Below, in pieces: positions 28,478-60,816 of a stretch of DNA of 64,000 bases. The stretch comes from Giardia intestinalis (Eukaryota). The translations under genes and the position numbers were made by a program. Under the pieces are notes generated by a model. The model did not search any database. It was given only the letters and a program-made list of their open reading frames with translations, and was not told where the DNA came from. The stretch lies in the NCBI GenBank assembly GCA_000002435.2, contig CM018789.1; one strand, 5' to 3'. Within the stretch, counting starts at the first letter, position 1; the number at the start of each line of letters is the position of its first letter.

Positions 28478-28835
28478 TGTATGCTTTTCGGTATAACTGT
28501 AAATGAAGTTTATCTAGCTTTAGATGGCTTTGTATATATCTAGTACTACAACTGGTACATTAATGTAAGCCTAAAGTAAAAAGCATAATATACAATACCA
28601 CCAGCATTCAGAGATAGGCCCTTGTAACAAGAGTGGTATTGGTAGACATATGGACACTACTACAAGCAGTTTCAAAAGATTCATATTGTATTATAATACA
28701 ATTTAAACATGAATAAGAACAGTTATGTCCAAAACCCCAGTGACTACAATCTCGTGAGCAGTCACTGTCGCAAGATTCATGCACATAAATTAGTTGACAG
28801 TGTTCAGTATGTTTGGTTATCCTTTAAAAAGTATT

Positions 28836-43096: not shown

Positions 43097-43402
43097 CTGT
43101 TGGTTGCATTTGATGATAGATCGGATTCCCCTCAAGCTGTGCAGCAAACAGACACCCTAATGAAGTGGTGGCTGTTAGTGGGTCACACAGCCACCCGTTT
43201 CCGCAGAGGCCAGGGGGAACAGACCTTCTCACCCTCGGTCAGCGCTAGGACACCGGTGGGTGAAACGGTCGCACAGGTGGCCTTCTCGCTCCTGATGCAG
43301 AAGCCCTCCGCAAGTATTGGACCACTACAGATCTGTAGACATAAACTCCTGTGGAAACGGATCGTTTCCAAAACTGTAGATTACCAAAATAATAAAACCA
43401 GG

Positions 43403-45577
43403 ATGCACGCTGCTTCGTCTGGATCCGCAACAATAGCTTTCAGTGTCCCACCGTTCACTCTCAGAGGGCTCTACAAGCAACTGAATGACGTGCTTAATGA
43501 AAGTCCCGCGGGAACAGTCTACTCTCTCAAGGATTATCTGGGCCTCGCCGTAAAGGAGGTCCTGCTCGACGGCCTGGACAAGGGGGATCTGGACACCATC
43601 AGACTAGAGCTGGCCACCCTTCTCGACCTCTCCCATCCGGGGGTCCTCAAGCACCATCAAGTGGTCGAGGATGATGACTTCATCTACGTCGTCACGGACC
43701 GCCACGACAAGACTCTCGAGTGCCTCCTCACTGAACACAAGCGAAGGAAGATCCCCGTCCCTATCGCTGTGATTCTCTCCGTCCTGAGGCAGGTCGCTGC
43801 CGCCCTCGCCTATCTCTACGGCCTCAGTGGGATAGGTACTAGGGGGCTCGTCCACCGCGACCTCAGGCCTGCCAATATATTTATCAGCGCAGATGGTGAG
43901 TACTTCGTCATCGCTGGTCTCGGCCTCTGCAGGAACGCCCTGAGAGGCGGGAGCATCACCGCGATAACAAGGCCGTACATGGCCCCCGAGGTGCTCCTCC
44001 ACAACGAGACCAGCCCTGCCTCCGATGTGTGGAGCCTCGGGGTCATCGTCTACGAGCTTACTATTCTGAGGAGACCGGACTTCCTAGAAGGTAAAGACCC
44101 AAAAGACGTCTTCGTTGACGGGTGGAGGCCGAACCTGAGCGGTGTCACCGATGGCTTCATAAAGAGCATTCTGGAAAGGATATTCGTGCTGGAGCCAGAG
44201 AGGAGGCCAACGGCCAAGGGACTGTGCGAGATGCTCGCCACAGCAGACATCCCAGTTAGTGAGCTGGGGCATCGGTGTGTGGCACTAGAAGACAAATGCA
44301 GCGCCTTGGAGGCTGCTTTGAACAGTGCTAATGCTAATATCGTGCTTCTGAAGGACGAGCTCAAGGTCGAGTCGGATAAGGTCACTGCTCTTGAGGCAGC
44401 CCTCGACGCCAGGTCTGCTGAGATTGCCTCTCTAAAGGGCGCTCTTGAGAACAGGCCAAGTGAGGCCGACGCCCTGGGACAGGAGCCCCGACTCAAGACC
44501 ACCAGGATCGACGCGCTTGAAGATCAGTGCAAGGAGTATTTAGCCATGATTAAGGCACTGGAGGATAAGCTTGCACAATCTAGTAGTGGGATGAACACGA
44601 GTAGCCCCCAGATCAACCTCTCCGCGCTGCCTCAACTGATATACGCTGCACACACGAATGACATGGAGACTGTCCAGATGCTGGCCAACGAGAAAGATTG
44701 TATCGGTCAGCGCGACGAGCGGGGGATGACGGCCCTCATGCATGCAGCCCAGCAGGGGCACGGTGGGCCTGTTGAGCTGCTTGTTAAGAAGGAAAAGGGC
44801 CTCAAAGATAAAAACGGCTGGACCGCGCTCATGCACGCCGCACACGGGAACCATCCTGAGGTAGCTAGGATTCTCATCCCTCATGAGCATGGGAGGAAGA
44901 GCAAGAACGGCCGTACTGCTCTGATGATTGCTGCACAGGAGGGCCATGCGGAGGCTGCTTCTGTTCTGGCTCCGTACGAGGAGGACCTGACCGACAGACA
45001 AGGCAACACGGCCCTGATCCTTGCGGCAGAGGCAGGACACGAAGCTGTGGTGGAGGCTCTCGACCCAACCGATGATAGGGGCGTCACAGCGCTCATGCGG
45101 GCCGCGAAAAGAAACGACACATTAGCAGTAAGCGCACTCATACCCGTCCAGAAGAAGCGATTGGCACCTACTGGGACAGCGCTAATACAAGCAGCAATAT
45201 GCGGCCACGTAGCAGCAGTACGACTGCTGATGCCATATGAGAGTAGGGCACGGGATGGTTGTGGTGCGACCGCCCTCATGAAGGCTGCCTCTGAGAATCA
45301 TGCAGAAGTAGTGCAGCTGTTGATGGAGCGCGAAGGCTGCATGCTGGATCCCCATGGCTTACCCGCTATCGTGCACGCAGCGTATGGCGGCCGCTTAGAG
45401 ATAGTGAAGCTGCTATTTGAAAAGGAGGGGCATCTAATAGACAAGTCTAATGAATCCTTCTTTGATAAGCTTGAGGCCAAGGGCTACTCTGAGATAGCAT
45501 CCTTCCTTAGGGACAGCCGTACACCGGGCGCCGATGACTGCAACGATCACCAAGCTGCTCCACGAGCTCACGAGTAA
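43403..45577 (+). CDS. NEK-like probable pseudokinase with coiled-coil linker and C-terminal ankyrin repeats
   Basis: Kinase domain has LAVKEV (beta3 Lys), HRDLRPANIF (Lys to Arg in the catalytic loop), GLG in place of DFG, YMAPE, DVWSLGVIVYEL. Then a coiled coil (LEDKCSALEAALNSANANIVLLKDELK...) and about 9 ankyrin repeats (TALMHAAQQGH...). ATG at 43403 preceded by 'aaaataataaaacc'. GC3 is elevated. Confidence 0.7.
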   Translation: MHAASSGSATIAFSVPPFTLRGLYKQLNDVLNESPAGTVYSLKDYLGLAVKEVLLDGLDKGDLDTIRLELATLLDLSHPGVLKHHQVVEDDDFIYVVTDRHDKTLECLLTEHKRRKIPVPIAVILSVLRQVAAALAYLYGLSGIGTRGLVHRDLRPANIFISADGEYFVIAGLGLCRNALRGGSITAITRPYMAPEVLLHNETSPASDVWSLGVIVYELTILRRPDFLEGKDPKDVFVDGWRPNLSGVTDGFIKSILERIFVLEPERRPTAKGLCEMLATADIPVSELGHRCVALEDKCSALEAALNSANANIVLLKDELKVESDKVTALEAALDARSAEIASLKGALENRPSEADALGQEPRLKTTRIDALEDQCKEYLAMIKALEDKLAQSSSGMNTSSPQINLSALPQLIYAAHTNDMETVQMLANEKDCIGQRDERGMTALMHAAQQGHGGPVELLVKKEKGLKDKNGWTALMHAAHGNHPEVARILIPHEHGRKSKNGRTALMIAAQEGHAEAASVLAPYEEDLTDRQGNTALILAAEAGHEAVVEALDPTDDRGVTALMRAAKRNDTLAVSALIPVQKKRLAPTGTALIQAAICGHVAAVRLLMPYESRARDGCGATALMKAASENHAEVVQLLMEREGCMLDPHGLPAIVHAAYGGRLEIVKLLFEKEGHLIDKSNESFFDKLEAKGYSEIASFLRDSRTPGADDCNDHQAAPRAHE

Positions 45578-45739
45578 ACCCGTCGTTCCCTTCACGAGAA
45601 GCAGAAGGCCCTGGAGAACAGGCCATACGGACCAGCGCCCCATGCTTCTGGCCGTGCCAAAGTGCCATGAAACAGCGTCTCCAAGTTTTCTATCAATTAT
45701 GTCTTATGAAGAGCCGCGATCGCAATTGGGAGGCAAAGA

Positions 45740-46498
45740 ATGGCACTTATTGAGGCGGCCAAGGAGAACAGGCTGGACTACGTCAGGGCCCACAAGGCCG
45801 CGGACGCAGGCCAGAGGGACGCAGACGGGAAGACGGCGCTCATGTGGGCCGCCGAGGCCGGGCACACCGCCGTCGCCCTGGAGCTGGTCGACGCAGAGGC
45901 GGGCCTGGTCTCGAACGACGGGTCCTTCGCGCTGATCGCGGCGGCAAAGAGGGGGAACCTCGAGCTGATCCAGGCCCTTTTCGAGAAGGAGGGGAGGCTG
46001 CGGGACGCCGGCAAGCTCTCCGCCCTCAACCACGCCTCCAAGGCGAAGCAGTTCGAGGCGGCCAAGGTCCTCCGGCTGAAGACCATCGAGACGATGGACG
46101 CGGCGATGCTGGAGCAGCTCCGGCAGAGGGTCGCGGCCACCTACACCGAGATGGCCAAGAAGTCGCAGCAGGCCGAGGTCAAGAGCCACAACATGGCCAT
46201 CTTCCGCTCGTTCTTCGAGGCGTTCTACTTCCTCTCCTGCTCGGGGATCGACCAGGGGGCGGAGATCTCGGAGGAGCAGCTGAACAAGTCCCTCGAGAAG
46301 TGCCTGGGCGAGATCCGCAAGCTCCTCAACTCGAAGAAGTACACGAAGTGCGTGAAGTGCCGCGCCAACGCCCCCAACCTGGTCTGCATGCCGTGCAAGC
46401 ACTACGTCCTCTGCAAGGACTGCGGGAAGGACGTCGCCAGCAAGGTCTGTCCTGCTTGCAACAAGCCGGTCGAGGAGTTCATGGAGGTCTTCAAGTAA
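45740..46498 (+). CDS. Ankyrin-repeat protein with C-terminal C3HC4 RING finger (IAP/MIB-type, putative E3 ubiquitin ligase)
   Basis: Ankyrin repeats (TALMWAAEAGHTAVALELV, FALIAAAKRGNLELIQALF), a coiled coil, then CVKCRANAPNLVCMPCKHYVLCKDCGKDVASKVCPACNKPVEEF. This fits C-x2-C-x11-C-x-H-x3-C-x2-C-x8-C-x2-C, the zf-C3HC4_3 RING of IAP/MIB/neuralized-type E3s. Nearly every codon ends in G or C. Confidence 0.7.
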   Translation: MALIEAAKENRLDYVRAHKAADAGQRDADGKTALMWAAEAGHTAVALELVDAEAGLVSNDGSFALIAAAKRGNLELIQALFEKEGRLRDAGKLSALNHASKAKQFEAAKVLRLKTIETMDAAMLEQLRQRVAATYTEMAKKSQQAEVKSHNMAIFRSFFEAFYFLSCSGIDQGAEISEEQLNKSLEKCLGEIRKLLNSKKYTKCVKCRANAPNLVCMPCKHYVLCKDCGKDVASKVCPACNKPVEEFMEVFK

Positions 46499-46996
46499 AC
46501 GCCAAGAGGTGCTCCACGTCTGCAGATGTCCACCTAGTCGGGGCTCACCAGTAGGATTGCTTTGGCAGCTGCGCCACGAACCACACAGGACAGAGACGCG
46601 GTGATTGGCGCAGCCCCAGAAGGAGCCAGCGGACGCGACCCGTGACAGTCTGACAGGACCAGATTTGTGAAGACGTCTGTCTCTACAAGCCCCTCCACCC
46701 AGCGGCCGTAGCCGAGACCCACCCTGGCCCTCTTTCCCATCAGTCCACCCAGGCAAGGTTTACTGTAGAACCGATGCTTCCCGCTGTTCAGTGTATTTGT
46801 TTGACTAAAGACACGCGGGTCCTTTTCAGATGCGGCTGCAGGACCATCCCGCGTGGAGCTGGGAGAGCGCAACGGCCTCCTCCGCCGCGTACTGCTCCGG
46901 GGCGTCGGCAGGCTGCTCTCGTAGAGCCAGCCGTGGTGGGCCAGCGCCAGCCGTCCTCGCTGCACGGGCTTATGGAGAGCTGGTAGATGAGCTTCG

Positions 46997-48780
46997 TCAG
47001 GTGCTCGCGGAAGGCGGGGAGGCCCTGCAGCTCGAACACCCCGTATATGCGCGAGTAGTCCCCGCCGCGAAGGGCAGTATGTGCTTGGCGATCTTCAGAA
47101 GCACGACGATGGACGAAAGGCTGTTGACCTTGGACAGCTGGTACCCCGGGAAGCTGCACGTGAGCGTGCCCGCCGTGTTCATGTTGGCGGGGCTGTTGGT
47201 GCTATGTCTCCGCGCAGGAACGCCATCAGGTTGGCCAGGTTGTTCGGGATGTACGCCGTCGGCGGCCTGGAGCCCCGCCCGGGACGCTCTGCGCCGCGGC
47301 CCCTGGCTGGCCGCCGTGCTGGAGGGCTGCAGGATGTGCGAGACGTAGCCGTAGAAGCAGCGCGACGCCGTCAGCAGGCAGAACAGCCGCCTGCCGCTCA
47401 CCAGGCTATGAAGGGGCCTCGCGGGGTCTAGCGCCGGGTCCGGCGGGGCGCCCTGCTTGGCGGGCCTGGCCTGCAGGAGGAGAAGGACGTGGAGGCAGCT
47501 CTTCAGCACAGACTCCCGGATGTGCCGCGTGGACGACGGGGTGTTGCTGGAGAACGCGCCCTTCTCGGCGTCCCTCGTCGTGCCCGCAGTCGCCTTGGCC
47601 GACAGGACCGTCTCCAGCATGTGGGGGACCCCACACAGCGCCAGGCGGAGCAGCGACGAGAGGAACGCCGGCATGTCGACCTCCCGGTTCAGGTGGTAGA
47701 GCTGGTGCCCCAGGACGCAGTCGGCCTCGTTGGAAATGCCGACGAGCATCGCCCGCTGGACGTCCAGGGGGAGCGCGTAGGCGAGCACGTTGACCAGCTC
47801 GTGGCACTTGATGCTGCGGAACCGCTCCTCGTGGTGGTTGAAGGACAGCGCCTTCTCTATGCACCGCTCGAAGTAGGGCAGATTGCCCTTCGCACCCGGC
47901 CTCCCCGAGAACGGGAAGGACGCGGTCAGCCCCCGCTTGACCCTGTTGAGGTACACGCGGTAGTCGCCGGTGGCCACCGCGTTGCCGAGGGTGCGCTCCA
48001 GCTCGGCGTCGTGCCCGCCGTGGAGGTCTGCCAGGGACTGCAGGCCGATCCGCACGTCCGGCCCGGGCGCCGCCTGTTGGGCTGGGGGCGTTGAAGGCCG
48101 TCATGACGCTTGCACACTCTGCCATCTGGTCTGCGACGCCCTTGTCGGCGTAGGGGAGACGTTGCCGGACGAGAAGGGGGCGGAAGCCGCTCGACGGTCT
48201 CGATCGCGCAGGACCCGGCGCTGCCCTGCTCCTCCAGGGCCATCCTGCGGATGCTCCGGCACGTCCGGGCCTGCTTGTGGCCGCCCAGGGGCCCAGGAGG
48301 AGGAGGAGCGCCTGCCTGGATCAGCTTGGAGAGCAGGCGCGCAAGGGCTGGACCAGGGCCCTGACGAAGCCTTCGAAGGTGCGGAGGCAGGGCAAGCAGT
48401 CGACCGAGCCGTCCAGGCGGTCGCAGACGGTGACCCCCCGCAGGTTCAGGGAGGCCAGCACAAGGTGCAGGACCTGGATGCAGTGGGCCAGGGGAGGCGG
48501 GAGCTGCTTGCTTGCGTTCTGCGTCGACTCCGCCCTCAGGTCCGAGAGGGAGGCCGCGCACTCGCCGGGACGCCGAACCGCTTGAGGACCTGCCTGAAAA
48601 GGGAGCCGCCGTTGTGGAGGAAGAGGAGGAGCGCCCGCCTCGCCTCGTCGGCGCCCATCTCGTCCTCGAAGAGCGAGAGGAACGACTCGCTGAGCTCGTA
48701 GATCGCCGGCTCCACGTCCGACCACACGACCGGGAGCGGGGCGGTCGTCCGGTTCTAGTCCAGGCTTCCGTCCCCCATGT
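46997..48780 (-). pseudogene. Hypothetical gene disrupted by multiple frame changes (pseudogene or uncorrected indels in GC-rich sequence)
   Basis: Protein-like minus-strand segments sit in different frames. Frame 1: VVWSDVEPAIYELSESFLSLFEDEMGADEARRALLLFLHNGGSLFRQVLKRFG. Frame 2: LAHCIQVLHLVLASLNLRGVTVCDRLDGSVDCLPCLRTFEGFVRALVQPL. Frame 1 again: MRIGLQSLADLHGGHDAELERTLGNAVATGDYRVYLNRVKRGL...PYFERCIEKALSFNHHEERFRSIKCHELVNVLAYALPLDVQRAMLVGISNEADCVLGHQLYHLNREVD... No single frame is open across the region. Confidence 0.35.
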
Positions 48781-50244
48781 TTGCGGTTTCATGGCCCGCG
48801 CGGCCCTCTGCCCCAATCCATAGGGCCATGGGCTTGAGCAGACGAGCGCTGCCCATTCATCCTCTACTATACGTTTCCACGGATGGCACCGTTCGCGGCA
48901 GGGGCACTGAAGCCTCAGGCGTTCCTCTCTGCCAACAACCATGAACTACGGTAAGGTCCTGACTAGGCTGGAAGGCGCTCTGGCGGTGGCACGGGCAACT
49001 GCTAGACCCGCCCGCATCGGCCTCTGGTCATGAAGGCGAGCTGGCCCTTCCTTGGTGTGTCCTCCATACTAGTGGGACTTGCCGCGCTTCCCCCTCACGT
49101 GCAGCCAAAGGCCATGGCCGACGTCCGCACTGGTCATATAGCCGACCTCCGCGACTCTGGTGGCAGCGTGCTTGCTCGCTTATTCCACGAGGCATGGGCA
49201 TGGTAGTTACCGGCCTTGCTGCACAGCTCTTGACGGCGCCTTCCAGCCATTGCATCGGCCAGCTGTGCTACTTACAAGAAGCTCGCGCGCGTTCCCAACG
49301 TTGCAGCAACGCACGCTTGATCCCCGGCGGTGATTACTTTCATTAGTGGTGGTGCCCGCTCCGTCTCTAATCTGGTGTCGAACACACCAAGGATGATAGC
49401 GGCGCCACTCACGTTGCCGACGACTGCTTTATCCTGGCTTCTCAGATTGAAGGAGTGCTCTTGCTGGGCGTGGGCTCCCACGCTCCCCTTCATGGCCTCC
49501 TGGCCCTGTGCAATCTCTTCCTGGAAAAACGATATGCTGCTGTGCGCGATGTCGTGCACGGCATGTCGCCGAAGCAATAGCAGGGCTGCGCAATCATGCA
49601 TCCACTTGGTGGGCTACATGACTTGGCCCGCCATGCTTCTCTGTGCCTTCTTGTCAGTGCTAAGCGGGCACCCTTACGACGGCCAGCGCCTATGCGGCTG
49701 CGTGTCTATTCAGCGTATTTGCTCGCGTCATTATCGATTTACCGTACTTGGTCTCCTCATTGAGCTCTGCAATTGTCAGCTGCCACAGAGCGAGGCAGGT
49801 TCTTACTCTGCCCGAGGGCGATTATTGTGGGAAGCTCCATGCAAAGAACGACTCCACAGCGGCTCAGTTTGTTATATGGACAGCTGGCAACCCGAGTTGT
49901 TCGTGGGGGAGACAGTGCCACAGACACATACCCTCTTCTCTCAATTCTAACAAGCAATCTTACAAGACCAGGAACAGAAGATTGCTGTCCATGAGGGCGG
50001 CTCTAAACTGCTCGGCGCATACAATGCACTCGAGAAGAGGCCTCCTGAAGATGTGCTGGTAGGCGCGGAATCGGACGGTCCGATCGAGACGCCGTCCCTG
50101 GCAGCCGCTGGTTCTCCTAGGGGCGACGAGCCCCATGCCCCCGATGGACTCCTACTTCCAAAGCCCCAGCCGGCAACGCCTGATGCCTCCAGGTGCTCCT
50201 CTCAAACTGACAGATTAAGGAAGTACTATGTTGAGCTAGCAGCC

Positions 50245-52800
50245 ATGCATAGGCAGATTACCGTACTTCAGTCTTCCGTACGCGAATCAGAGACAGAGTG
50301 CGTGCCAGTTCTTAGATCCTTGTAGTTTAGTATTCCTAGGGGGTGCCTGGTTGGGGTGGGGGGCTGTGTTGGCTCCGGGAAGTCGAGCTTCCTATTGGCT
50401 ATTCTGGGAGAGGTGGCCCTTTCGACATCAAGTAGTTCGGATTCCGCTCATATACACTCGGTGGGCCGTATTGCATACTGCTCGCAGGTGCCGTCCGTGT
50501 TTACAGGGACCATACAGTTCAATATCCAGTTATTCTTACCCTATGATGAAGAGAAAATGCAGCTTGCAACTCGACTCTCCTGTCTGGATGGGGACCTTTC
50601 TGAACTACCAGGGGGGCTTGCCACACTTGTTGGCAGCCGCGGTGTGACACTGTCTGGAGGACAGAAAGCTCGATTATCAATTGCCAGGGCCATCTACTCC
50701 GACGCGGATATTTACTTGTTTGATGATCCGTTCGCCTCTCTGGACTCTCATGTTTGCAAGTCGTTATGGAGCGAGACCATCAAAGGGTATCTACTTGCAA
50801 GGGGGAAGACCGTTGTGTTGGCGACCAATCAGATGCATTACTTTCGTTCGTGCTTAAAGGTGCTATTTATAGATGCTGGCACGATCAAAGAAGTGACACC
50901 AGAGAGCGTAGATATAGACTGTTCTCCTCTGCCCGTCGCAGAAGTCCTCTCACTGACCTCTATACAGGCTGTAGAGAAACACGACTCTGACTATCAAGTG
51001 CATCGAATGGCAGCAGTGCTTAAGGAGGAGAAATGCACGGAGCTGGGATCTGTTAATTCTAAATATTACAAGCTATGGTTCAAGGCAGGCGGGACCTGGA
51101 GATTCGTCATTTATGTTGTCATGTGGGTCTTCTGTATACTTATGTTGCAACTGGCGTCGCTGCTCATCAACTTCTGGACCGAACAGCGGCTAGGGCTGAG
51201 CACAGGTGGTTGCATAGGTCTGTTCTTGTCGTTCTCCTTTGCATTTATGGTGATCCTCTTCGTTGGGCAGCTCTTCTATATGCTGTTCACACGGAAGGCG
51301 GCAGAGAAGCTGTACTACAGCATGGAAGAGGGGCTTATCAATACATCGATGTCGTTCTATGACGCACACCCCATTGGACGGATCCTTAACCGCCTGATAG
51401 CAGACACAGGTACATGTGATTTGACGGTGAAGAATGGCCTAGCAGCGACATGTGAGAACTCCATCTTTGTGCTGGGTTCATTACTGGCCACTTTGCTGAT
51501 GAGCTGGCCATCTACGTTTGTGCTAGTTCCCTTGCTGGGACTGTTCCTTTGGATGTTCATGGGATTTCGTGCTGTGTCGCCCCTCTTGCGACGCACCACC
51601 TCCCTCTTGAATAGCCATGTGTGTAACTTTATTCTAGACACATACTACAACCTGGCATCTCTTAGAGCGTATAGGTATGAAGCCCAGGCGGCAAGCTACT
51701 ACGCCAGAGCCGTCCTAGCTATGGAGGCGGCATTTTGGATGGATGTTTCCCTCTACAGATGGCTACACTTTACAACTACCCTTCTATCTATCTGTGTGTC
51801 CGCAGTAGTTACTGTGTCCACTATCATAACGTCTTCTTTTGCTAACGGAGAGATATTTTCAGGTACCGTACTCATGAATGGCTTTGATGTTGTCATGATG
51901 TTAATAGATATGTGCTTCGGGATTGTTGCAATGGATCTTTCTATGGCCAGCGTGGAGAGGGTAGCAGAGTACGCTACTCTTGAACCAGAGAGTACAAGCG
52001 CTCCGCATAGCCCAAGTAGCTTGCCGGCAGACTCTACTCTCGGGCTTATTGTGCAAGATCTTTCGCTACGCTATCAACAGCATTTGCCAGTTGTGCTTCA
52101 TGGGATCTCATTCACAGCGGCCAAGGGAGAGCGCGTTGCAATCATAGGAAAGACAGGGTCTGGCAAGTCATCCCTTGTCAATGCGATTCTCAGACTTGTC
52201 GAGCCAGAGGCGGGCTCTGAGATTCTCTTGAATGGCCTGAACCTGCTGAAGATGGGCTTACATCAGGCACGGTCTAAGGTGACGCTGATACCACAGGATC
52301 CTTTTATTTTCTCCGGGACACTGCGAGCCTATCTCTCCGGGGATAGACGGTTCTCAGATGAGGAGCTGTGGCGTGTCTTGGAGAAGACGCACTTGCGTGA
52401 ATACTTCGCAGCTCAGTCAAAGCAACTTGACTACCACCTTTTTGATAACGGCAGCAACCTTTCGCTCGGACAGCGACAGCTTCTGTGCGTAGCCCACGCG
52501 CTGCTCAGAGACACAGAAGTCATCCTATTGGACGAGGTAACAGCACACGTAGATAGTGCCGCAGAGGCGGCTATTCAGGATGCCCTGGGGGCATATAAGG
52601 AGCAAAAGATCATTATTACGATAGCCCATAGACTCCGCACTGTTTGCAACCAGGATAGGGTTATTGTTATGGCCGGTGGTCAAATAGTCGAGCAGGGTCC
52701 TCCACGCGTGCTGTTTCACAAGCCTGACAGTATCTTTGCCAATATGGTAAGGTGTTCGGTAGATTCGGAAGACCTCGTCGATTTTCTTACGTCGATGTGA
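50245..52800 (+). pseudogene. ABCC (MRP)-type ABC transporter, 5'-truncated (no TMD1) with in-frame TAG at 50323-50325; retains NBD1-TMD2-NBD2
   Basis: NBD1: ...ITV...FSIPRGCLVGVGGCVGSGKSS (Walker A), LSGGQKARLSIARAIYSDADIYLFDDPFASLD (signature and Walker B). TMD2: about 6 hydrophobic helices (WRFVIYVVMWVFCILMLQLASLLINFW...). NBD2: GKTGSGKSSL, LSLGQRQLLCVAHALL, VILLDEVTAHVD, IAHRL. Reading back in frame from 50356 gives RSL-TAG-FSIPRG, the start of NBD1 interrupted by a stop. Nothing resembling TMD1 lies upstream. PolyA signal AGTAAAT at 52814-52820. Confidence 0.65.
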
Positions 52801-53788: not shown

Positions 53789-54250
53789 TCAGGTGGAGCC
53801 GAACTCCGCTGTGAACTTCGCTATGCGCGACTTGTCAGCTTGGGAGACGCTCGACTTCACGGCTGCCTTGGCACGCAACAGGCTACTCACAGTGACATAG
53901 GGAACCGTCAGCTTATCGTTGGGAATATCCATAAAGTCTTTCTTCTCAGCGCCGGGCATGTCTGATGCTGAAACCTCGTACATGCCTGTGATCTTATTGA
54001 GGCGGAAGTAGGACACCTTCTGCAACACGCGCACGGGGTCCATGAGAGCTTCCTTGCACAATATGCTGAGGTCAGAGCCAGAGTAGTTCTCTGTTTGCTG
54101 TCCGAGCTCAGTGATATCCTCATCTGCTAGCACATTGGGCGTAGTGCCGATGCAATTCTTTATGATATTTGCTCTGGCAGCGGCGTCTGGGAGGACGATC
54201 TCGATGCGCTTCTCGAAGCGGCGGCGGATCTCCACCCAGGCCCCCTTGAA
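53789..54250 (-). pseudogene. VPS4-like AAA ATPase, C-terminal fragment only (no Walker A/B region present)
   Basis: From ...EIRRRFEKRIEIVLPDAAARANIIKNCIGTTPNVLADEDITELGQQTENYSGSDLSILCKEALMDPVRVLQKV...KLTVPYVTVSSLLRAKAAVKSSVSQADKSRIAKFTAEFGST to the stop, this matches the Vps4 second region of homology, small alpha domain and C-terminal helix (human VPS4 ends ...DLLKVKKFSEDFGQES). The roughly 250 aa expected upstream, including GPPGTGKS and DEID, are not found on the minus strand in any frame between 54250 and 55060. Confidence 0.6.
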
Positions 54251-54284
54251 CGGCAACTGTGCGGCCAATCCACGAGCAGCTTTC

Positions 54285-54779
54285 TGTGCAACAATCACAA
54301 GTGGGGCCTGTACACAATGCAATGAGGGTTACTTCCTCAAGGACGGCGGCTGCTATCAGACAGATAGACAGCCTGGTAAGCAGGTCTGTAGTAGTGCACA
54401 GGGAGGAACATGTCAGACGTGTGCCAACGGACTGCAGGTACAAAGTGGGGCCTGTGGGGAGTGCCACTCTACTTGTGCTACGTGCTCGACTGCAGATGAC
54501 CCTAATAAGTGTAAGACCTGTGCCACTGGGTATTACAAGACAAGCGATAATGATGGCCCGTGCATGAAGTGCTCTGAGGGGCTCGCTGGGTGCAGACAGT
54601 GCACAGCGTCATCCACCGATGCGTTCATGTGCCTCGAGATGGGCGATGGCACTGGCGACAACACCGGGGGAAGCACCAACAAGAGCAGCCTCAGCACTGG
54701 CGCCATCGCGGGGATCTCCGTCGCTGTGATTGTCGTTGTGGGGGGCCTTGTGGGCTTTCTCTGCAGGAGAGAGACGTAG
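54285..54779 (+). pseudogene. VSP (variant-specific surface protein)-like 3' fragment with divergent tail (…GGLVGFLCRRET instead of …CRGKA)
   Basis: FCATITSGACTQCNEGYFLKDGGCYQ...CQTCANGL...CGECHSTCATCS...CKTCATGYYK...CMKCSEGLAGCRQC...TNKSSLSTGAIAGISVAVIVVVGGLVGFLCRRET. The CxxC spacing and the TM segment are those of Giardia VSPs. Only about 165 aa are present where VSPs are usually >400 aa. The conserved CRGKA end is replaced by CRRET-stop. Confidence 0.6.
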
Positions 54780-55063
54780 ACTTAGATAATAAATATGTCA
54801 CATCAAGGCATCCTGTGCTCAGTGATTGTCCGACAACTGATTCCCTAAACACTGAATGGTATCTAACTGAAGGTCTCAAGAAGAGGTAAACTCACAACGG
54901 ATAACCGATAGCATCAGGAGGGGAGAACTAGGAATGCCTCTATCAAAACTGGCAGGACGAGTCCGCTGAGACAACATGGGCCGTGCCACACATTCCAAAC
55001 TATTCTGACATGTAAAAATGTGGTTTTTAATTAGTTTGTCTAATTTAAGTACTCAAGGAAGCC

Positions 55064-57088
55064 ATGAAGCACTCTAAAAGTGAGGAAGAGTTCTTATCGT
55101 GGAAGGAATTCACATCGGAGACATGTACCAAAATATATAAACTAGCTGCTGAGCACTTTTCGCGTCGGTATCTCTCCAATATGACCAGGACTGGGGATCC
55201 TCGTTTTTGGGGGAATGAAATGGAATCTATTATTTTACAAAAGCACCATAAAAACACATATGCGCTTAGCACTAATCACTGTCACGATCAACTTGCAAGA
55301 CTTTCAGATAGATTGACGCTCATGCCTGAATTTGCACGGTTTATCCTTGAGTTCATACCTGTTGCTCCATTTGATGAAGAGCTAAGAGGTCTTCGTCTTA
55401 GATGTGATGAATATACTAGACATGTCACTGACTTGCTCGCTACAGCGGAGCTAGAAGAACTCACGATTCTTTTAGGCACATGCTATCCAGTCTTTGGGAA
55501 AGACTTTTTAATGGACAGGGACGCCTTTAGCTCACAGACTCCCGACCAGCTTGAGCTATTGAAGACCAAAATGCTCGAGTACGTCACTGATACTGGTAGG
55601 TATCGTACGCTAGTCTCCAATATGCTTTTGCGGAAGGGCAGTATCTCGTGGGCTACCGTGTCTTCTAGTTGTGGAGACACGTACTATCTCCCAGGGCCTC
55701 TGTTTGGTATGGGCTTGTGTGGGATGCATGTCACGATCCAGAGTGCAACCATGGAAGACTCGCGCCTCCTTTACGATGCACTTCAACCCTTGTGTCCGGT
55801 TCTCTTGGCTCTTAGCGCATCTACTAGCGTATTGGCTGGGGTTGTTCTAGATAAGGATACGCGGACATCCTATTTGTCTGATGCCATGGACGATCGGCCA
55901 CTACATGAGCACTCTATAGGACTACCAAGACGCTATAGTGTGGCAGGAGTGTATATTGCAAATCATCCAGCAAATATCCCTCTTTTAAACGACGTATCAC
56001 CTGTTTCATCAGGGCTCAGTAGTAGATCTAGTGTCATTCAGTCTAGTGGTAATGATTCCAAAATACATGCCTACGTTCAATCTGTTATTTCACATTTTCC
56101 ATTAGTAGTTTTACGAGATTCTCTTGTCTTCCACGATGAAAGTTTTGACTCAGACTGTTGGGATCAAATACATTCGCTTTTTTGGCCGACTTGTCGTTGG
56201 AAAGTTCCCCCAATAGACTCTCTCAAAGGAAGTACGGGCTGGCGCACTGAAGTTCGTTGCATGGAGATGCAGTTCTCCATAGCAGAGAACCTTGCATACT
56301 CGGTCTTTGTGTTCCTGCTTTCAAGTGCCATTAGAGACATGGGTCTGCTATTCTACATTCCTCAGACTTTCATCTTACAGGATATGTCTTCTGCAGAAAA
56401 GCGTGACGCTGTTAATAATGAGTTGTTCTGGGTAAGAGACGTCTTCCTCGACCTACACTTCGAAAGTGTATCTGGTGCTGATCTTCAACTCGGCTCCTCA
56501 GGTATCTTTTCAGAGCAATGCAGACAAATGGCTGTAGAGATATTTTCTTCTCAAATCAGATTGGCACTGGAAAATAGACGAGCGTTTGCAACTCTAAGCT
56601 CAGCAGACGATGCTGGTACACATAGGCACACGTGGTGTCCTAAAAGCGTGTGCACGTGTTTCGAGAATAGCATTTCTGATTTTCATCTGATAAAGGTAAG
56701 TCTTAAAGAGTTTATGTGCGGGTCCGCTCGATATCCTGGGCTTCTTCCTGTACTTGCTATGTACACAGACGCATATTTTGATACTATCGCCGATCCCACA
56801 TCCCTGGATGACGTTGAATATATTCACTCTGTCATTTCATATCTTGCAGACCGTGCTGCTGGTGTTATTCCAACCTGTGCTGCAGCAGTGCGAAATCTTA
56901 TACAGAATATGCACACTCACAGAGACAATAGCTTCGCTGAAGTGTGCTCTAGTATGCTTTCAGAACCAGAGGTACAAATAGTTACCGAGTACATGCTTGG
57001 TGCTAGGCGACTATCGCTAGATGGTCTGCGAGAATACTATAGAGCCCACTCTGGTACTGTTAGTATTAGCGTTAGCACCCCCGAATGA
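55064..57088 (+). CDS. GCLC: Glutamate-cysteine ligase catalytic subunit (gamma-glutamylcysteine synthetase, eukaryotic GCS family)
   Basis: 674 aa. N-terminus FWGNEMESIIL (compare KWGDEVEYMLV in animal GCLC). Core GPLFGMGLCGMHVTIQSATMEDSRLLYDALQPLCPVLLALSASTSVLAGVVLDKDTRTSYLSDAMDDRP (compare [67 protein letters not shown]). C-terminal half RWKVPPIDSLKGSTGWRTEVRCMEMQFSIAENLAYSVFVFLLSSAI...IPQTF...AEKRDAVNNELFWVRDVF (compare [43 protein letters not shown]...IPLSKV...AQKRDAVLQGMFYFRKDI). ATG at 55064 confirmed. Confidence 0.8.
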   Translation: MKHSKSEEEFLSWKEFTSETCTKIYKLAAEHFSRRYLSNMTRTGDPRFWGNEMESIILQKHHKNTYALSTNHCHDQLARLSDRLTLMPEFARFILEFIPVAPFDEELRGLRLRCDEYTRHVTDLLATAELEELTILLGTCYPVFGKDFLMDRDAFSSQTPDQLELLKTKMLEYVTDTGRYRTLVSNMLLRKGSISWATVSSSCGDTYYLPGPLFGMGLCGMHVTIQSATMEDSRLLYDALQPLCPVLLALSASTSVLAGVVLDKDTRTSYLSDAMDDRPLHEHSIGLPRRYSVAGVYIANHPANIPLLNDVSPVSSGLSSRSSVIQSSGNDSKIHAYVQSVISHFPLVVLRDSLVFHDESFDSDCWDQIHSLFWPTCRWKVPPIDSLKGSTGWRTEVRCMEMQFSIAENLAYSVFVFLLSSAIRDMGLLFYIPQTFILQDMSSAEKRDAVNNELFWVRDVFLDLHFESVSGADLQLGSSGIFSEQCRQMAVEIFSSQIRLALENRRAFATLSSADDAGTHRHTWCPKSVCTCFENSISDFHLIKVSLKEFMCGSARYPGLLPVLAMYTDAYFDTIADPTSLDDVEYIHSVISYLADRAAGVIPTCAAAVRNLIQNMHTHRDNSFAEVCSSMLSEPEVQIVTEYMLGARRLSLDGLREYYRAHSGTVSISVSTPE

Positions 57089-59597
57089 TGTTACTTGCTC
57101 TCCTTCCTATTTCTGTACCAGCCTCCATGGGGAGCATGTTGCTACTCTCGTTCCAACTGGTTGCAACCCAAACAGCTCGGCTTGAGCTTCTGGAAACACC
57201 TCGCTCGGAGTCTGTATGTACTGGAAAGGTGGCACTGATGCCAATTGATAATTGGGAGTATGTAGAGACGACACTAGCTCGCTGGTAGCTACTGCTGGCT
57301 CGACTAACACTAGCTCTCGACACTCTGCTAGCCATCGTTAAAGGAACTCTTGGGGGATCCAGGGTGGTCCCAGGCTCTAATTGCGAATAGATAGAACCAT
57401 CTGGAGATCTTGAAGCGGTGGTGCCCGGAGGCGTTACTCTTCGTTGCGGGGCCTTGGATCTACGCAAGTTATCAGCTACACTAGTTTGACTGCGTCTAGC
57501 GCATTGTAGAAACTCTTCTGAAGGATCTGGAAGCTCGTTCCGATACGACTGAGTGGCGGACTGGTTAGATCCCGAACGTAACTTCTTAGCACTTTTAGAT
57601 ATAGGTGTCCCTGTCTTCTCGTATGGAGTAATATTTATTGAAGGGGCTAAAATGGAAGATGCCGTGTACAAATCGGATGCTTCTATCGTGCTACTTAGAG
57701 AAAGCTCAAACATCATGCTGTTGTCTGGAAATCGACGACTAAAGATGGAATATGCATCATACATCTCCAGGTAGCTACTGATTAGTGCAGAAAGCTCTCC
57801 CCGAGTAAGAATGCTGTAGAGCTGAGTTGGAGTAATAGGCTTGTCGTTTATCAACTCCCAAATGCTTTCACATGGAATGGGATCGCTTGAAGAAAATGTC
57901 TCCATTAAATTAAACCCCTCTCGCCTACTCTTAAAGACTGCTCTATCGGTGGTTCCTATAGAATAGTCCATTGCTTTGTGCACTGTGCATGTTAAATAAG
58001 CAATTTCGGCGGGTCTTTGGCCAACGGTCTTCGGCTTTGAAGTTGCAAGATAATACTGCATACGATCGATCAATCCTGTCTCATAGAAGCACATGTAATA
58101 GAGGGAGTTGTCATAGGCCCCTAGTTCCAACATAGAATTGCGTATACGCGTTAGGGGGCAAAGAATCATGTTACAGTTGATGAAGCGTGCAGAGGAGGAG
58201 ACGTCTGACATGAATTCTAATAGTTCCTTACAACAGAGGCTAGCTGCTGCACCCATTATAGGAGAGTATCGCAGGACCTTGGCAGCATTTTCTGGTGACA
58301 GCCATTCTGATGTACCTCCACAACCAAGATATGCTGTGGAGTTCATCTCAGCGCGGCTGCTCTCTGAAGCAATATACATCTCCATCGCCTTTACGTGTAT
58401 GGAGTCGTATTCTGGTACATAGCTATGCACTAGGTCTCCGAGAAGGATGGCCTCCTTTAACTCTCCAAAGCAACAGAAGAACCTGGCAACAAGAACCAGG
58501 ATATAATAAACCTGTCGAAAGGAAAGCTGCTGAACTATGGTACCTGAGCAGCACTGGTACGTACTATGTAGCTCTGCTATGACCAGTTTTATTACATCAG
58601 ACATTCCTGGTATGGCCAGGGGAATAAGATCAACGATAGAGATAGATGTTTCATAGACAGTTGCAGTTTTTCTCAGGTCTTCTTCATTGTAGCGTAAAGT
58701 CTCAGCAGAAAGGGACAAGGAAAAGTAAGTTGCTATTAAGTTAATGATATCCATGACGAATGTATCATATTGGCTGTACTGTGCTATGTGCCGAGCCATG
58801 TGCGTAGCTATATCAAACACTTGGTCGTAGAAGCAGTTGAGGTCTTCTGGATACTTGCTAAACAATAACGTAAGTGACGTACATATGTTTGTCACGTGAT
58901 CACTGTGGGGAATGGGCATCTGTAACAGCTTACTTAAATAGCGAAACAAGGAATACATGAAGGTTAGAGGGACGGAGGCATCTTCTTGTAGGAGCGGAAC
59001 AACGGCACAAAACTTATCTGAGGAGAGAAGGTTGAGAAGTGGCGAGTATTGATCATGCGAAACAATGCTAAGTCCATCCTTCGGGCTGACCTCTGCAAGA
59101 GTGGTAAGTATGCTTTTAATTATTTCAAATTGAGAGTGAAGGTCTTCATATGTTTGGTATCCTAGCATAAGGCTCTTAGTCGCCTTTTCCACACCATTAG
59201 CAAAGTACCTCTGAAACTCTGCACTGGAGAGATATGCATCTCGAATGGGTTTGCTTCTCAGCATAGCACTGAAGATTGCAGGTAGCTTATCAGTAATTTG
59301 CTTTTCCTGAGATGTGGTGAATACTATACCTTCCTCGTTATACTGACCGGAAAAGGCGGCGAGAGAAAGGTTTGTGATAACATCTGGCCGTATCAATGTG
59401 GAAACAAGATGGCTAGTTGGGTTGGCCAATTCAAGGATGAAGCTATCCCTTAGTATTAATGAAAGAATTGCTCCACGGGTTTCATGCTCGTGAGACTGGT
59501 CTACGAACATGTTCGTAGAAAGCACAGACCAGTAAATACGTTGTGCCCCCAAAGGAGTATCAACGTCCCTGATAAGTTTCATAGGAGTTAGAGGCAT
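57072..59597 (-). CDS. Hypothetical protein (~842 aa), Ser-rich C-terminal region
   Basis: The ORF-track start 59681 is a GTG and would overlap the divergent gene at 59659. The ATG at 59595-59597 (MPLTPMKLIRDV...) leaves a 61 bp AT-rich divergent promoter ('ttcttttaaaaatcc'). 3' end overlaps the convergent GCLC gene by 17 bp. Confidence 0.5.
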   Translation of the reverse strand: MPLTPMKLIRDVDTPLGAQRIYWSVLSTNMFVDQSHEHETRGAILSLILRDSFILELANPTSHLVSTLIRPDVITNLSLAAFSGQYNEEGIVFTTSQEKQITDKLPAIFSAMLRSKPIRDAYLSSAEFQRYFANGVEKATKSLMLGYQTYEDLHSQFEIIKSILTTLAEVSPKDGLSIVSHDQYSPLLNLLSSDKFCAVVPLLQEDASVPLTFMYSLFRYLSKLLQMPIPHSDHVTNICTSLTLLFSKYPEDLNCFYDQVFDIATHMARHIAQYSQYDTFVMDIINLIATYFSLSLSAETLRYNEEDLRKTATVYETSISIVDLIPLAIPGMSDVIKLVIAELHSTYQCCSGTIVQQLSFRQVYYILVLVARFFCCFGELKEAILLGDLVHSYVPEYDSIHVKAMEMYIASESSRAEMNSTAYLGCGGTSEWLSPENAAKVLRYSPIMGAAASLCCKELLEFMSDVSSSARFINCNMILCPLTRIRNSMLELGAYDNSLYYMCFYETGLIDRMQYYLATSKPKTVGQRPAEIAYLTCTVHKAMDYSIGTTDRAVFKSRREGFNLMETFSSSDPIPCESIWELINDKPITPTQLYSILTRGELSALISSYLEMYDAYSIFSRRFPDNSMMFELSLSSTIEASDLYTASSILAPSINITPYEKTGTPISKSAKKLRSGSNQSATQSYRNELPDPSEEFLQCARRSQTSVADNLRRSKAPQRRVTPPGTTASRSPDGSIYSQLEPGTTLDPPRVPLTMASRVSRASVSRASSSYQRASVVSTYSQLSIGISATFPVHTDSERGVSRSSSRAVWVATSWNESSNMLPMEAGTEIGRRASNIIRGC

Positions 59598-59658
59598 CGT
59601 GTAAAGGGACGTTAGGATTTCTTTTAAAAATCCGCGTCCTTTTGGTCGGCATTCTACG

Positions 59659-60816
59659 ATGACACAGCAGTTTCTAGCCACACAGACAGACCTAGTGAAG
59701 CCTTATGCGGAACACCCACTCATTCTTCGTTCTTTTGATGACATCTACACCCGTAAGGCCCTGCTGCACAAAGGGAGTGATGTGTCTCTATACCTCACCG
59801 TCCTGACTACATCCATGGAGCAGGTAATTTCTAAGGAGATCTACTATCAGGAAGAGAACGAAGATCTCGTCTTTGCTTTAACAGACGAGCTACGCTATAT
59901 CTCTTACATGAATAATCGGTGCTTGCAGCCGATTCTTGATGTGTTCTTCCAGAGACCTGAGAAACGTATCATTGCTGTCTATGCTTCTGTTAATGGGCTC
60001 TCTCTGAGGCAGATAATAACCTATAACACAAAACACAATGTTCGCATTTCCGAGAGTGACATGTGGCGCATAGCAGGTCAGCTAGTGAGCGTTCTTTACT
60101 ACATGCACTTCGTTCAATCTCTTCATCGACTCGTGAAGAGCGCCAATACTGATGCGTTTACTGAGAGCGCTCGTGAGGAGGATTTTGCCGTTATGTATAG
60201 ACTCTATAAAAACCGTCCGGAGAACTTCTGCAGCGATGATATTCATTATAAAAACTTTCAGCTGGAAGAGCTGGCACGCGTCTCTAATCACTTGGTTCGT
60301 GAAAAGAGCATGGAGCTCTATGAATATGCCTGTCAGATAATACCAATCTTGCACAGAGAGATTACCCCGGACAACCTGATAGTCGACAGTGCAGGCTATC
60401 TTGTACTGTGTAATGCTAATCCGTATAGAGTCCTCTCGCAAGAATACGGTCCATATGACTCTCCAGAACTGCAGAAATTTGGTATATTTTCAGAAGCAAC
60501 TGACTTGTACAGTGTAGGGCTTGTCTTGTATGAACTCTTAACCTGTCGCAAGTATCTCGAACGGTCTGTGGACTCTCACTGGTGTCCGCGCCAACTTCCA
60601 AATACCCTCTATTTTGATGGGTACTCTACACATCTTCGCAACCTGATCAGAGGACTGCTTCACCCAGATCCAGCGCTGAGGCCTCTCCTGACAGACATCA
60701 TGAGGCTACCTCGCCTAAGCGATTCATTTCGTGGTGTGGATAGCGTTGGGAAGGTTACCCCAATATACAAAAGCCTTCTTCTACATAACTACACAAATCT
60801 TGCTGCGTTCAAGTGA
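59659..60816 (+). CDS. Highly degenerate kinase-fold protein (pseudokinase, NEK-related?)
   Basis: Remnants of kinase subdomains: ILHREITPDNLIVDSAGYLVLCNA (compare HRDIKPDNLL...K..DFG), TDLYSVGLVLYELLT, LLHPDPALRP. No Gly-loop, beta3 Lys, catalytic Asp or DFG. ATG at 59659 confirmed. Confidence 0.55.
   Translation: MTQQFLATQTDLVKPYAEHPLILRSFDDIYTRKALLHKGSDVSLYLTVLTTSMEQVISKEIYYQEENEDLVFALTDELRYISYMNNRCLQPILDVFFQRPEKRIIAVYASVNGLSLRQIITYNTKHNVRISESDMWRIAGQLVSVLYYMHFVQSLHRLVKSANTDAFTESAREEDFAVMYRLYKNRPENFCSDDIHYKNFQLEELARVSNHLVREKSMELYEYACQIIPILHREITPDNLIVDSAGYLVLCNANPYRVLSQEYGPYDSPELQKFGIFSEATDLYSVGLVLYELLTCRKYLERSVDSHWCPRQLPNTLYFDGYSTHLRNLIRGLLHPDPALRPLLTDIMRLPRLSDSFRGVDSVGKVTPIYKSLLLHNYTNLAAFK

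Follow-up and report, generated by a model that had tools for sequence, protein, structure and literature searches.

Gene locus and identity

The window analysed here, a stretch of 64,000 nucleotides from Giardia intestinalis, contained a complete coding sequence for a glutamate-cysteine ligase (GCL), and the features of the locus are as in Table 1. The predicted protein showed 100% identity to XP_001706039.1 (UniProt A8BN69), the reference protein of G. intestinalis WB C6, which carries the database name "Glutamate-cysteine ligase"; the gene ID given for the Giardia enzyme is GL50803_16001 (PMC8700996). Because of this identity, the gene is one that was already known, having been annotated since the 2007 genome and named in NCBI and UniProt, and the novelty weighed in an earlier note on this DNA was lost. 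Its presence with GSH2 and a glutaredoxin-like protein had also been discussed (Jimenez-Gonzalez 2019, PMC6934886, citing Morrison 2007), and the published expression data showed that transcripts of GCL and of the glutathione synthetase gene GL50803_15429 both rise in mid-encystation (PMC8700996).

The match to the WB reference lay on a 1.49-Mb contig, and 146 contigs carried the protein. The GC content of the locus was 0.45-0.49, which is typical for the window. The Giardia origin of the DNA, read by the earlier note from the rest of the window, was borne out by the match to the WB C6 protein. NEK-ankyrin kinases and one VSP fragment were present in the window. A functional link of GCL to an ABCC/MRP-like ORF 2.3 kb upstream was rejected, adjacency being the sole argument for it and the ORF being 5'-truncated; the P15 contig ends short of this region. 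A GC-rich block at 40-50 kb was considered as rDNA and rejected since an Rfam scan of the whole window produced zero matches.

Table 1. Features of the glutamate-cysteine ligase locus, with positions in the 64,000-nucleotide window.
Feature	Position	Strand	Basis and remarks
AT-rich stretch abutting the ATG upstream	55005..55063	+	Sequence read; presumed short Giardia-type promoter/initiator
Complete CDS, glutamate-cysteine ligase (Gsh1/GCLC type)	55064..57088	+	674 aa plus stop; ATG-to-stop ORF
N-terminal metal-binding glutamates E52, E54, E89, E96	55217..55351	+	Yeast alignment; = yeast E50, E52, E96, E103
Shortened loop ISWATVSSSCGDTY (residues 193-206)	55640..55681	+	Alignments; in place of the long KV.I.VP.F.D..TP... 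loop of canonical GCLCs
Pfam GCS domain match	55703..56932	+	Residues 214-623; profile positions 8-355 of 372
His222 codon	55727..55729	+	Translation LCGMHVTIQS; gapless 3ig5 alignment; position of yeast Gln268 / LdGcs Gln328
Glutamate-binding R267 (yeast R313) and Y291 (yeast Y362)	55862..55936	+	Alignments; Y291 within conserved RY motif R290-Y291
ATP/metal/glutamate-binding block CRWKVPP...GWRTEVR	56195..56257	+	R378, K380, R394, E396, R398 = yeast R449, K451, R468, E470, R472
Giardia-specific insertion, about residues 463-545	56450..56698	+	Alignment; partly low model confidence

Family membership and predicted structure

The profile check of the translation produced a Pfam PF03074 (GCS) match with an E value of 1.9e-58 and 199 bits (cutoff 25). 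The sole PDB sequence match was the S. cerevisiae glutamate-cysteine ligase 3ig5_A (E=3.6e-27), which aligned in three pieces covering the N-terminal, core and C-terminal regions. An AlphaFold2 model built on a 111-sequence alignment had a pLDDT of 90.4 and a pTM of 0.93; an earlier 8-sequence alignment had given a pLDDT of 39.8 and was discarded. The best Foldseek structural match to the model was again yeast GCL 3IG5 (E=7.6e-25, TM 0.71 in both directions), and the matches ranked after it all belonged to the GCL/YbdK superfamily. Taken together, the Pfam score, the 3ig5_A alignment and the match of the model to 3IG5 showed that the ORF is homologous to eukaryotic GCL over its full length and far above chance, in agreement with the full-length eukaryotic-type catalytic subunit proposed earlier.

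Yeast Gsh1 (3IG5/3IG8/3LVV/3LVW; eukaryotic group 2) shares the Pfam family and can be aligned over the whole fold, with about 18-25% identity to the Giardia protein. Bacterial group-1 GshA and YbdK-type carboxylate-amine ligases (1V4G, 1R8G) have a common superfamily fold with it (Foldseek E 1e-6 to 1e-4) but are another family. Assignment to a different amidoligase family was rejected on two grounds: the NCBIfam YbdK/GshA matches reached 12-21 bits against cutoffs of 176-371, the YbdK profiles matching weakly at residues 218-260 and far under their curated cutoffs, and the structural matches to these families were far weaker than that to 3IG5.

Catalytic residues and sequence blocks

Giardia metal-ligand residues were mapped by counting along the yeast 3ig5 alignment. 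The Mg2+ ligands of yeast Gcl are E50, E52, E96, E103 and E470 (PMC5613772 Table 3). The Giardia counterparts of the first four were kept in all 6 Giardia sequences, and the same columns in 144 other GCLCs held Glu in 108-128 sequences, at most 3 other residues and gaps in the remainder. The fifth, E396, was conserved in every Giardia sequence (n=6), as were the glutamate ligands Y291, R398 and R267 (yeast Y362, R472 and R313) and the ADP ligand K380 (yeast K451); R394 (yeast R468) was conserved as well. Every Mg2+, glutamate and ADP ligand listed for ScGcs was thus conserved, and 27 of the 28 family-conserved positions checked were retained. Overall, the Pfam threshold, the 3IG5-like fold, the Mg2+ glutamates and the Glu/ATP-binding residues expected of a group-2 GCL were all found.

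The hallmark blocks listed in the earlier note were present for the most part, namely RWKVPP, GWRTEVRCMEMQ, ENLAYSVFVFLL and AEKRDAV. The GFGMG block had been quoted there as the family consensus, and the actual residues read LFGMGLCGMHVTIQS; writing the consensus for the actual residues concealed a Gln-to-His change at residue 222. Yeast Gsh1 also differed in having a longer loop after the RRG motif and in lacking some 80 residues that are inserted in the Giardia protein ahead of the C-terminal helical region. In the model, strands E196-201 and E206-210 on either side of the shortened loop were preserved, and the Leishmania counterpart of this loop has been described as far from the active site (PMC5613772). 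The pLDDT dropped at residues 461-480 and 511-540.

Substitution at residue 222

His222 was the sole exception among the active-site ligands compared with yeast Gcl. The conserved Gln of the CLQVTFQ motif (yeast Q268, LdGcs Q328), a near-invariant residue with no standing as a formal family criterion, was missing in all five G. intestinalis-complex sequences, which all had His. The substitution was confined to that complex, and Gln occupied the column in G. muris, Carpediemonas, Kipferlia and 141 of 144 other GCLCs. Searched against PDB sequences, the motif segment around His222 matched yeast Gcl only. Residue 222 is placed by the alignment in the glutamate/metal pocket, and the equivalent Gln328 of LdGcs has been implicated in the binding of L-glutamate (PMC5613772).

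Conservation, selection and origin

GCL ORFs were intact in five members of the G. intestinalis complex (assemblages A, B and E plus two further lineages), where the orthologs were also syntenic, and in G. muris. The dN/dS of GCL within the complex was 0.13-0.22, with dS between the compared Giardia lineages of up to about 1.6, and the gene is under purifying selection. Omega for two syntenic neighbours was 0.02-0.12, so that the GCL protein evolved 2-4 times faster; being above that of the neighbours, the GCL value suggests a gene less constrained than a core housekeeping enzyme would be. The synteny check showed that the gene order GCS, 844-aa gene, kinase and kinesin was preserved in P15 and two other lineages.

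Beyond the G. intestinalis complex, the GCL most closely related was that of G. muris (TNJ26485.1, 567 aa), which scored 305 bits to the Giardia profile, grouped with Giardia in the distance tree and shared the shortened loop. Identity between the two proteins was 32%, and the G. muris protein was 107 residues shorter, lacked most of the insertion and had the canonical Gln (CGLQVTLQ). The Giardia GCL clade was monophyletic in this tree. The nearest non-Giardia matches formed a mixed-eukaryote plateau of 175-214 bits, in which Kipferlia bialata GIQ83520.1 and Carpediemonas membranifera KAG9390517.1 were among the top matches (175-187 bits); these two are longer (778-862 aa) and have the canonical Gln. 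No donor lineage could be inferred from the profile-search plateau and the distance tree. That GCLCs of free-living Fornicata rank among the best non-Giardia matches fits a gene older than the genus Giardia.

Glutathione pathway context

In line with the earlier note, reviews still describe Giardia as lacking glutathione or the pathway for making it, including a 2023 statement on the pathway. Trophozoites were reported to have no glutathione and to use cysteine as the major thiol (Brown 1993, as related by the papers citing it). The conflict of this view with the GCL and glutathione synthetase genes has already been discussed in publications. No primary GSH measurement, enzyme assay or buthionine sulfoximine (BSO) study in Giardia was found in the searched literature.

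Among the 31 window ORFs of 250 aa or longer there was no match to a glutathione synthetase family, which agrees with the earlier remark that no such gene is nearby. Outside the window, GL50803_15429 is annotated as "Glutathione synthetase, putative" (PMC8700996), and GSH2 has been reported in Giardia (PMC6934886). With such a gene at another site in the genome, the two explanations offered earlier, re-purposing and gamma-Glu-Cys as the final product, are not required.

Among the Fornicata, Hexamitinae lost both a Grx-like protein and GSH synthesis, and Giardia and Kipferlia retain both (PMC6934886). The earlier statement that Giardia lacks glutathione-dependent enzymes was therefore too strong, given the glutaredoxin-like protein retained (PMC6934886). 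Glutathione reductase is absent from all Fornicata, glutathione peroxidase occurs only in Kipferlia, Dysnectes and Ergobibamus, and thioredoxin reductase has been proposed as the GSSG reductase (PMC6934886); according to the literature, Giardia has no GST gene. Kipferlia is reported to have GSH2 and a Grx-like protein and, unlike Giardia, glutathione peroxidase (PMC6934886). GSH1 and GSH2 are likewise retained in microsporidia, highly reduced eukaryotes that also have mitosomes (Trachipleistophora hominis and Encephalitozoon cuniculi), where the literature treats them alongside mitochondrial-type Fe-S cluster export and maturation; the likeness to Giardia is a functional analogy only. Rada and colleagues are said to have described a mitosomal Grx5 of Giardia in 2009.

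Proposed function and alternative explanations

The gene apparently encodes a working first enzyme of glutathione synthesis, as judged from its sequence. We consider it probable that this is a functional Gsh1 leading to small or stage-specific amounts of glutathione, with supply of a cofactor to a mitosomal monothiol glutaredoxin as a plausible role. By homology, the ORF would be a catalytically competent glutamate-cysteine ligase (EC 6.3.2.2, eukaryotic group 2) which would bind ATP and L-glutamate via Mg2+ ions held in the glutamate cluster, form gamma-glutamyl phosphate and then ligate L-cysteine to yield gamma-glutamylcysteine. The separately encoded glutathione synthetase GL50803_15429 would convert this product to glutathione. 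With cysteine in free form making up the bulk of the thiol and no glutathione reductase, GST or glutathione peroxidase in the parasite, the GSH made would most likely be small in amount or stage-specific, with the transcript rise pointing to mid-encystation. The most plausible consumer would be the mitosomal monothiol glutaredoxin and Fe-S machinery, with GSH as a cluster ligand, and any GSSG could be recycled by thioredoxin reductase. Both the low-level synthesis and the Fe-S/glutaredoxin role are our inference, the latter from co-occurrence and from analogy with yeast and microsporidia. The reported absence of GSH from trophozoites, His222 and the omega above that of the neighbours were counted against a functional GSH pathway.

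The best-surviving alternative, though an unlikely one, is that the enzyme is active but re-purposed, with gamma-glutamylcysteine as its end product or with a metal or amino-acid specificity shifted by His222 so that it makes another gamma-glutamyl amide. The fixation of His in the glutamate/metal pocket of five lineages at a column with Gln in 141 of 144 other GCLCs, the role given to LdGcs Gln328 (PMC5613772), the faster evolution relative to the neighbours and the reported failure to detect GSH in trophozoites would all fit such a change. However, the genome has a glutathione synthetase gene whose regulation parallels that of GCL (PMC8700996), and a homolog of bis-gamma-glutamylcystine reductase was not found in Fornicata (PMC6934886). 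The remaining substrate and metal ligands are all conserved, and Gln has persisted in G. muris and other Fornicata, which belong to the same orthologous, monophyletic group, so that the function was canonical in the ancestor. In addition, the corresponding metal site of GshA from E. coli and other bacteria presumably contains a His, and a His at residue 222 should therefore suit normal chemistry.

Less probable still is the view of GCL as a remnant, decaying or devoid of function, of an ancestral glutathione pathway, retained by chance in an organism that has ceased to use glutathione. The textbook view of Giardia without GSH, glutathione reductase or GST, the elevated omega and the lineage-specific insertions and deletions with an active-site substitution lend themselves to this reading, but full-length ORFs have stayed intact in six lineages at dS of up to about 1.6, dN/dS lies far under neutrality, 27 of 28 checked positions persist and transcription is regulated in encystation (PMC8700996). 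Moreover, the pathway is gone from the sister diplomonads, Hexamitinae (PMC6934886), so loss occurs when the gene is dispensable; a pseudogene was accordingly rejected on the six intact ORFs and their omega. Finally, a contaminant or recent foreign acquisition is scarcely credible: in a published tree Fornicata GSH1 is the sister group of Blastocystis, from which a single transfer between eukaryotes, of unspecified direction, has been suggested (PMC6934886), but the WB identity on the 1.49-Mb contig and 146 contigs and the conserved synteny refute the contamination that the earlier note had allowed for, the GC content matches the window, and with the gene in G. muris, Kipferlia and Carpediemonas and a monophyletic Giardia clade any transfer would be older than the genus.

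Implications for Giardia thiol metabolism

A new detail is the change from Gln to His at residue 222, which is small and testable. A more specific proposal is that G. intestinalis makes low or encystation-specific GSH for mitosomal glutaredoxin and Fe-S work and that His222 alters metal or substrate properties in a way exploitable for selective inhibition; it is offered tentatively, and we would lean slightly against it as a whole. The interest lies in the gap between reviews that call Giardia glutathione-free and an intact, selected GCL with a complete catalytic set throughout the genus, together with a glutathione synthetase gene. If the proposal is true, the statement that Giardia lacks the pathway, still repeated in 2023, would be contradicted, and GSH would serve purposes other than redox buffering. 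At stake are the source of the glutaredoxin cofactor for the mitosomal Fe-S machinery of Giardia and the contribution that thiol metabolism may make to encystation or to nitro-drug tolerance.

Identification of the glutamate-cysteine ligase

The profile search with the 674-aa translation showed a match to the Pfam glutamate-cysteine ligase (GCS) family PF03074 at 199 bits (E = 1.9e-58; curated cutoff 25 bits), in which residues 214-623 covered profile positions 8-355 of 372. Among all PDB sequences the sole match was 3ig5_A, the glutamate-cysteine ligase of S. cerevisiae (E = 3.6e-27), aligned in pieces near the N terminus, in the core and near the C terminus. Bacterial YbdK/GshA-type ligase models of NCBIfam scored 12-21 bits against cutoffs of 176-371, which ruled out another amidoligase family and, together with the GCS and 3ig5_A matches, indicated the eukaryotic group. 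An AlphaFold model built from a 111-sequence alignment was confident (pLDDT 90.4, pTM 0.93; an 8-sequence alignment gave pLDDT 39.8). Its top structural match in the PDB was yeast GCL 3IG5 (E = 7.6e-25, TM 0.71 in either normalisation), followed at far lower scores by YbdK, plant GCL and E. coli GshA. The ORF belongs to the group-2 GCLs of eukaryotes, and the full-length eukaryotic-type enzyme proposed in the earlier note was confirmed by the ORF, profile, sequence and structure matches, including the profile check it had suggested.

The translation was identical at every residue to KAE8301237.1, XP_001706039.1 and UniProt A8BN69 in public databases, labelled "Glutamate-cysteine ligase" of Giardia intestinalis ATCC 50803 (WB clone C6); the window is therefore of Giardia WB and the gene was already annotated. 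The protein sequence was found on 146 contigs, the longest of 1.49 Mb; a contaminant origin of the ORF is less likely. The gene is GL50803_16001 in Rojas-Lopez et al. 2021 (PMC8700996), where it was up-regulated in mid-encystation together with the glutathione synthetase gene, entered in the supplement as "GL50803_15429 Glutathione synthetase, putative". With reference to Morrison et al. 2007, Jimenez-Gonzalez et al. 2019 (PMC6934886) also report GSH1, GSH2 and a glutaredoxin-like (Grx-like) protein as encoded in Giardia. With annotation and expression on record, the novelty suggested for the gene was lost: the finding is correct but known, and there is no new kind of system here, the gene and its context being already published.

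Active site residues

Yeast numbering was carried to the Giardia protein by counting in the 3ig5_A sequence alignment, and PMC5613772 (Table 3 and text) supplied the residue roles. The Mg2+ ligands (yeast E50/E52/E96/E103/E470) aligned with Giardia E52/E54/E89/E96/E396, the L-glutamate ligands (Y362/R472/R313) with Y291/R398/R267, the ADP ligand (K451) with K380, and yeast R449 and R468 with R378 and R394; the RFKPP motif holds yeast residues 449/451. In a 150-sequence alignment every one of these residues was kept across the six Giardia sequences and in almost all of the rest. Two further features were Giardia-specific: an insertion of ~80 residues, partly of low confidence in the AlphaFold model, and a shortening of the loop after the RKG motif; the Leishmania counterpart of this loop is described as distant from the active site (PMC5613772).

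The sole exception among the mapped active-site positions was residue 222, whose counterpart in Leishmania, LdGcs Gln328, was assigned to the glutamate pocket (PMC5613772). The motif here is CGMHVTIQ in G. intestinalis versus CLQVTFQ in the family. His222 was present in five of five G. intestinalis-complex sequences, while Gln was found in G. muris, Carpediemonas and Kipferlia, with 141 of 144 other GCLCs having Gln. The T. brucei counterpart, Q321, was reportedly proposed as a metal ligand, and E. coli GshA probably uses a His at this position. The Gln to His change, restricted to the G. intestinalis complex, is the only detail here that was absent from the literature searched.

Conservation and synteny

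Intact orthologs were present in assemblage E (P15; 82% identity), assemblage B (cluster of EET02075.1; 65%) and two further lineages drawn from sequencing-run data (67% and 62%). G. muris also has an intact one, of 567 aa (TNJ26485.1). The synteny check proposed in the earlier note showed the same local order in three other lineages: the GCS gene, a convergent ~844-aa gene, a 385-aa kinase and kinesin. The dN/dS (omega, Nei-Gojobori) of 0.13-0.22 among five G. intestinalis-complex sequences clearly points to purifying selection, and a functionless relic is less likely. Comparison of positions 55064..60816 with three syntenic loci (L001, L002 and L004) produced omega values of 0.05-0.12 and 0.02-0.05 for the two neighbours, with that of GCL 2-4 times higher. 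The A-E amino-acid identities of the neighbours were 91% and 94% against 83% for GCL. GCL clearly evolves faster than both; its constraint is real, yet relaxed by comparison with them.

Outside the G. intestinalis complex, the best relative was the GCL of G. muris; next came GCLCs from other Fornicata and from diverse eukaryotes, on a plateau at 175-214 bits. The Giardia clade was monophyletic in a distance tree. Fornicata GSH1 has been placed as sister to Blastocystis (PMC6934886).

Genomic context

Features of the window around the glutamate-cysteine ligase (GCL) gene
Feature	Position	Strand	Remarks
Kinase + ankyrin-repeat (NEK-type) ORF	8094..9998
Kinase + ankyrin-repeat (NEK-type) ORF	28794..30731
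Kinase + ankyrin-repeat (NEK-type) ORF	33510..35744
Kinase + ankyrin-repeat (NEK-type) ORF	43100..45577		within GC-rich block
Ankyrin + RING-finger ORF	45740..46498		within GC-rich block
ABCC/MRP/Ycf1-family ORF	50356..52800	+	814 aa; PDB matches
Vps4 C-terminal fragment	53789..54322	-	AAA_lid_3 + Vps4_C; 5'-truncated
VSP C-terminal fragment	54111..54779	+	PF03302 positions 271-388 of 397; 5'-truncated
GCL ORF	55064..57088	+	674 aa; ATG-initiated, from ORF listing
Convergent gene	57072..59681	-	no Pfam domain; about 842-844 aa in other assemblages

At its 3' end the convergent gene overlaps the GCL stop region by 17 nt (57072..57088), an overlap kept in two other lineages (L002 2078..2094; L004 4494..4510). 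No AGTRAAY signal was found near the GCL stop (57088) on the plus strand; the nearest was on the minus strand at 56822..56828, 244 nt past the stop of the convergent neighbour and within the coding sequence of GCL. AGTRAAY occurred 30 times in the window against 29.5 expected, not above chance, with many copies at or directly past ORF stops (e.g., 9987, 24912, 33465, 45573, 46494 and 52814).

Upstream, the Vps4 and VSP fragments lie head-to-head with overlapping ORFs, and the VSP fragment ends in ...GFLCRRET, not the canonical CRGKA tail. Assemblage E (L004) has a full 625-aa VSP upstream of the GCS gene. The fragment pair (53789..54779) looks like a rearrangement scar. The ABCC-type ORF matched the C-terminal halves of ABCC2, ABCC4, Ycf1 and MRP1 in the PDB (E ~1e-113 to 1e-103). 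It starts at the NBD1 Walker A motif (GGCVGSGKSS), with no in-frame TMD1 to be seen upstream of it, and therefore looks 5'-truncated or frameshifted. This transporter family takes in glutathione-conjugate pumps; a functional link to GCL, 2.3 kb downstream, was not supported.

The four NEK-ankyrin ORFs bore out the earlier reading. The window also holds housekeeping genes (DNA ligase I, SMC-like ATPase, MutL-like protein, eIF2B subunit, tubulin cofactor C, Memo and a bromodomain protein); such a chromosomal context is typical of Giardia. The block at 40001..50000 is GC-rich (0.55-0.65 versus about 0.46-0.50 elsewhere). No Rfam match was found anywhere in the 64-kb window, and rDNA was therefore ruled out for this block. 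Only overlapping ORFs were present at 46.5-50.3 kb, and the two scanned, each 250 aa or longer, had no Pfam match.

Probable glutathione synthesis in Giardia

The primary source for Giardia lacking glutathione (GSH) is reportedly Brown et al. 1993. Reviews describe Giardia as without GSH and the glutathione/glutathione reductase system (PMC4588103), and G. duodenalis is counted among the eukaryotes without the GSH synthetic pathway in a paper of 2023 (PMC10829872). The paradox raised in the earlier note stood in part: genome and biochemistry genuinely diverge, but specialists had already noted the discrepancy. A modern, targeted quantification of Giardia GSH or gamma-Glu-Cys was not found in the literature searched, nor was an enzyme assay or a buthionine sulfoximine experiment.

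The best-supported reading is an ordinary Gsh1, predicted to be active. It would activate the gamma-carboxyl of glutamate using Mg2+ and ATP and then couple it to cysteine, and the product would pass to the separately encoded glutathione synthetase. An enzyme turned to another purpose, or one whose end product is gamma-Glu-Cys itself, is less likely. None of the 31 window ORFs of 250 aa or more encodes a glutathione synthetase, as the earlier note had seen for the vicinity. Output of GSH by the ordinary Gsh1 pathway would probably be small or stage-specific, because cysteine is the bulk thiol and glutathione reductase, GST and GPx are missing. The GST gene is absent from Giardia (PMC4450592), cysteine synthesis has been lost, and glutathione reductase is absent from every Fornicata, where thioredoxin reductase may reduce GSSG (PMC6934886).

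The monothiol glutaredoxin and Fe-S machinery of the mitosome may use GSH as a cofactor, because GSH synthesis and the Grx-like protein were kept or lost together in Fornicata, both being lost in Hexamitinae (PMC6934886), and because microsporidia, like Giardia, have mitosomes and retain GSH1 and GSH2. The biochemical question of Giardia glutathione has been testable since 2007.
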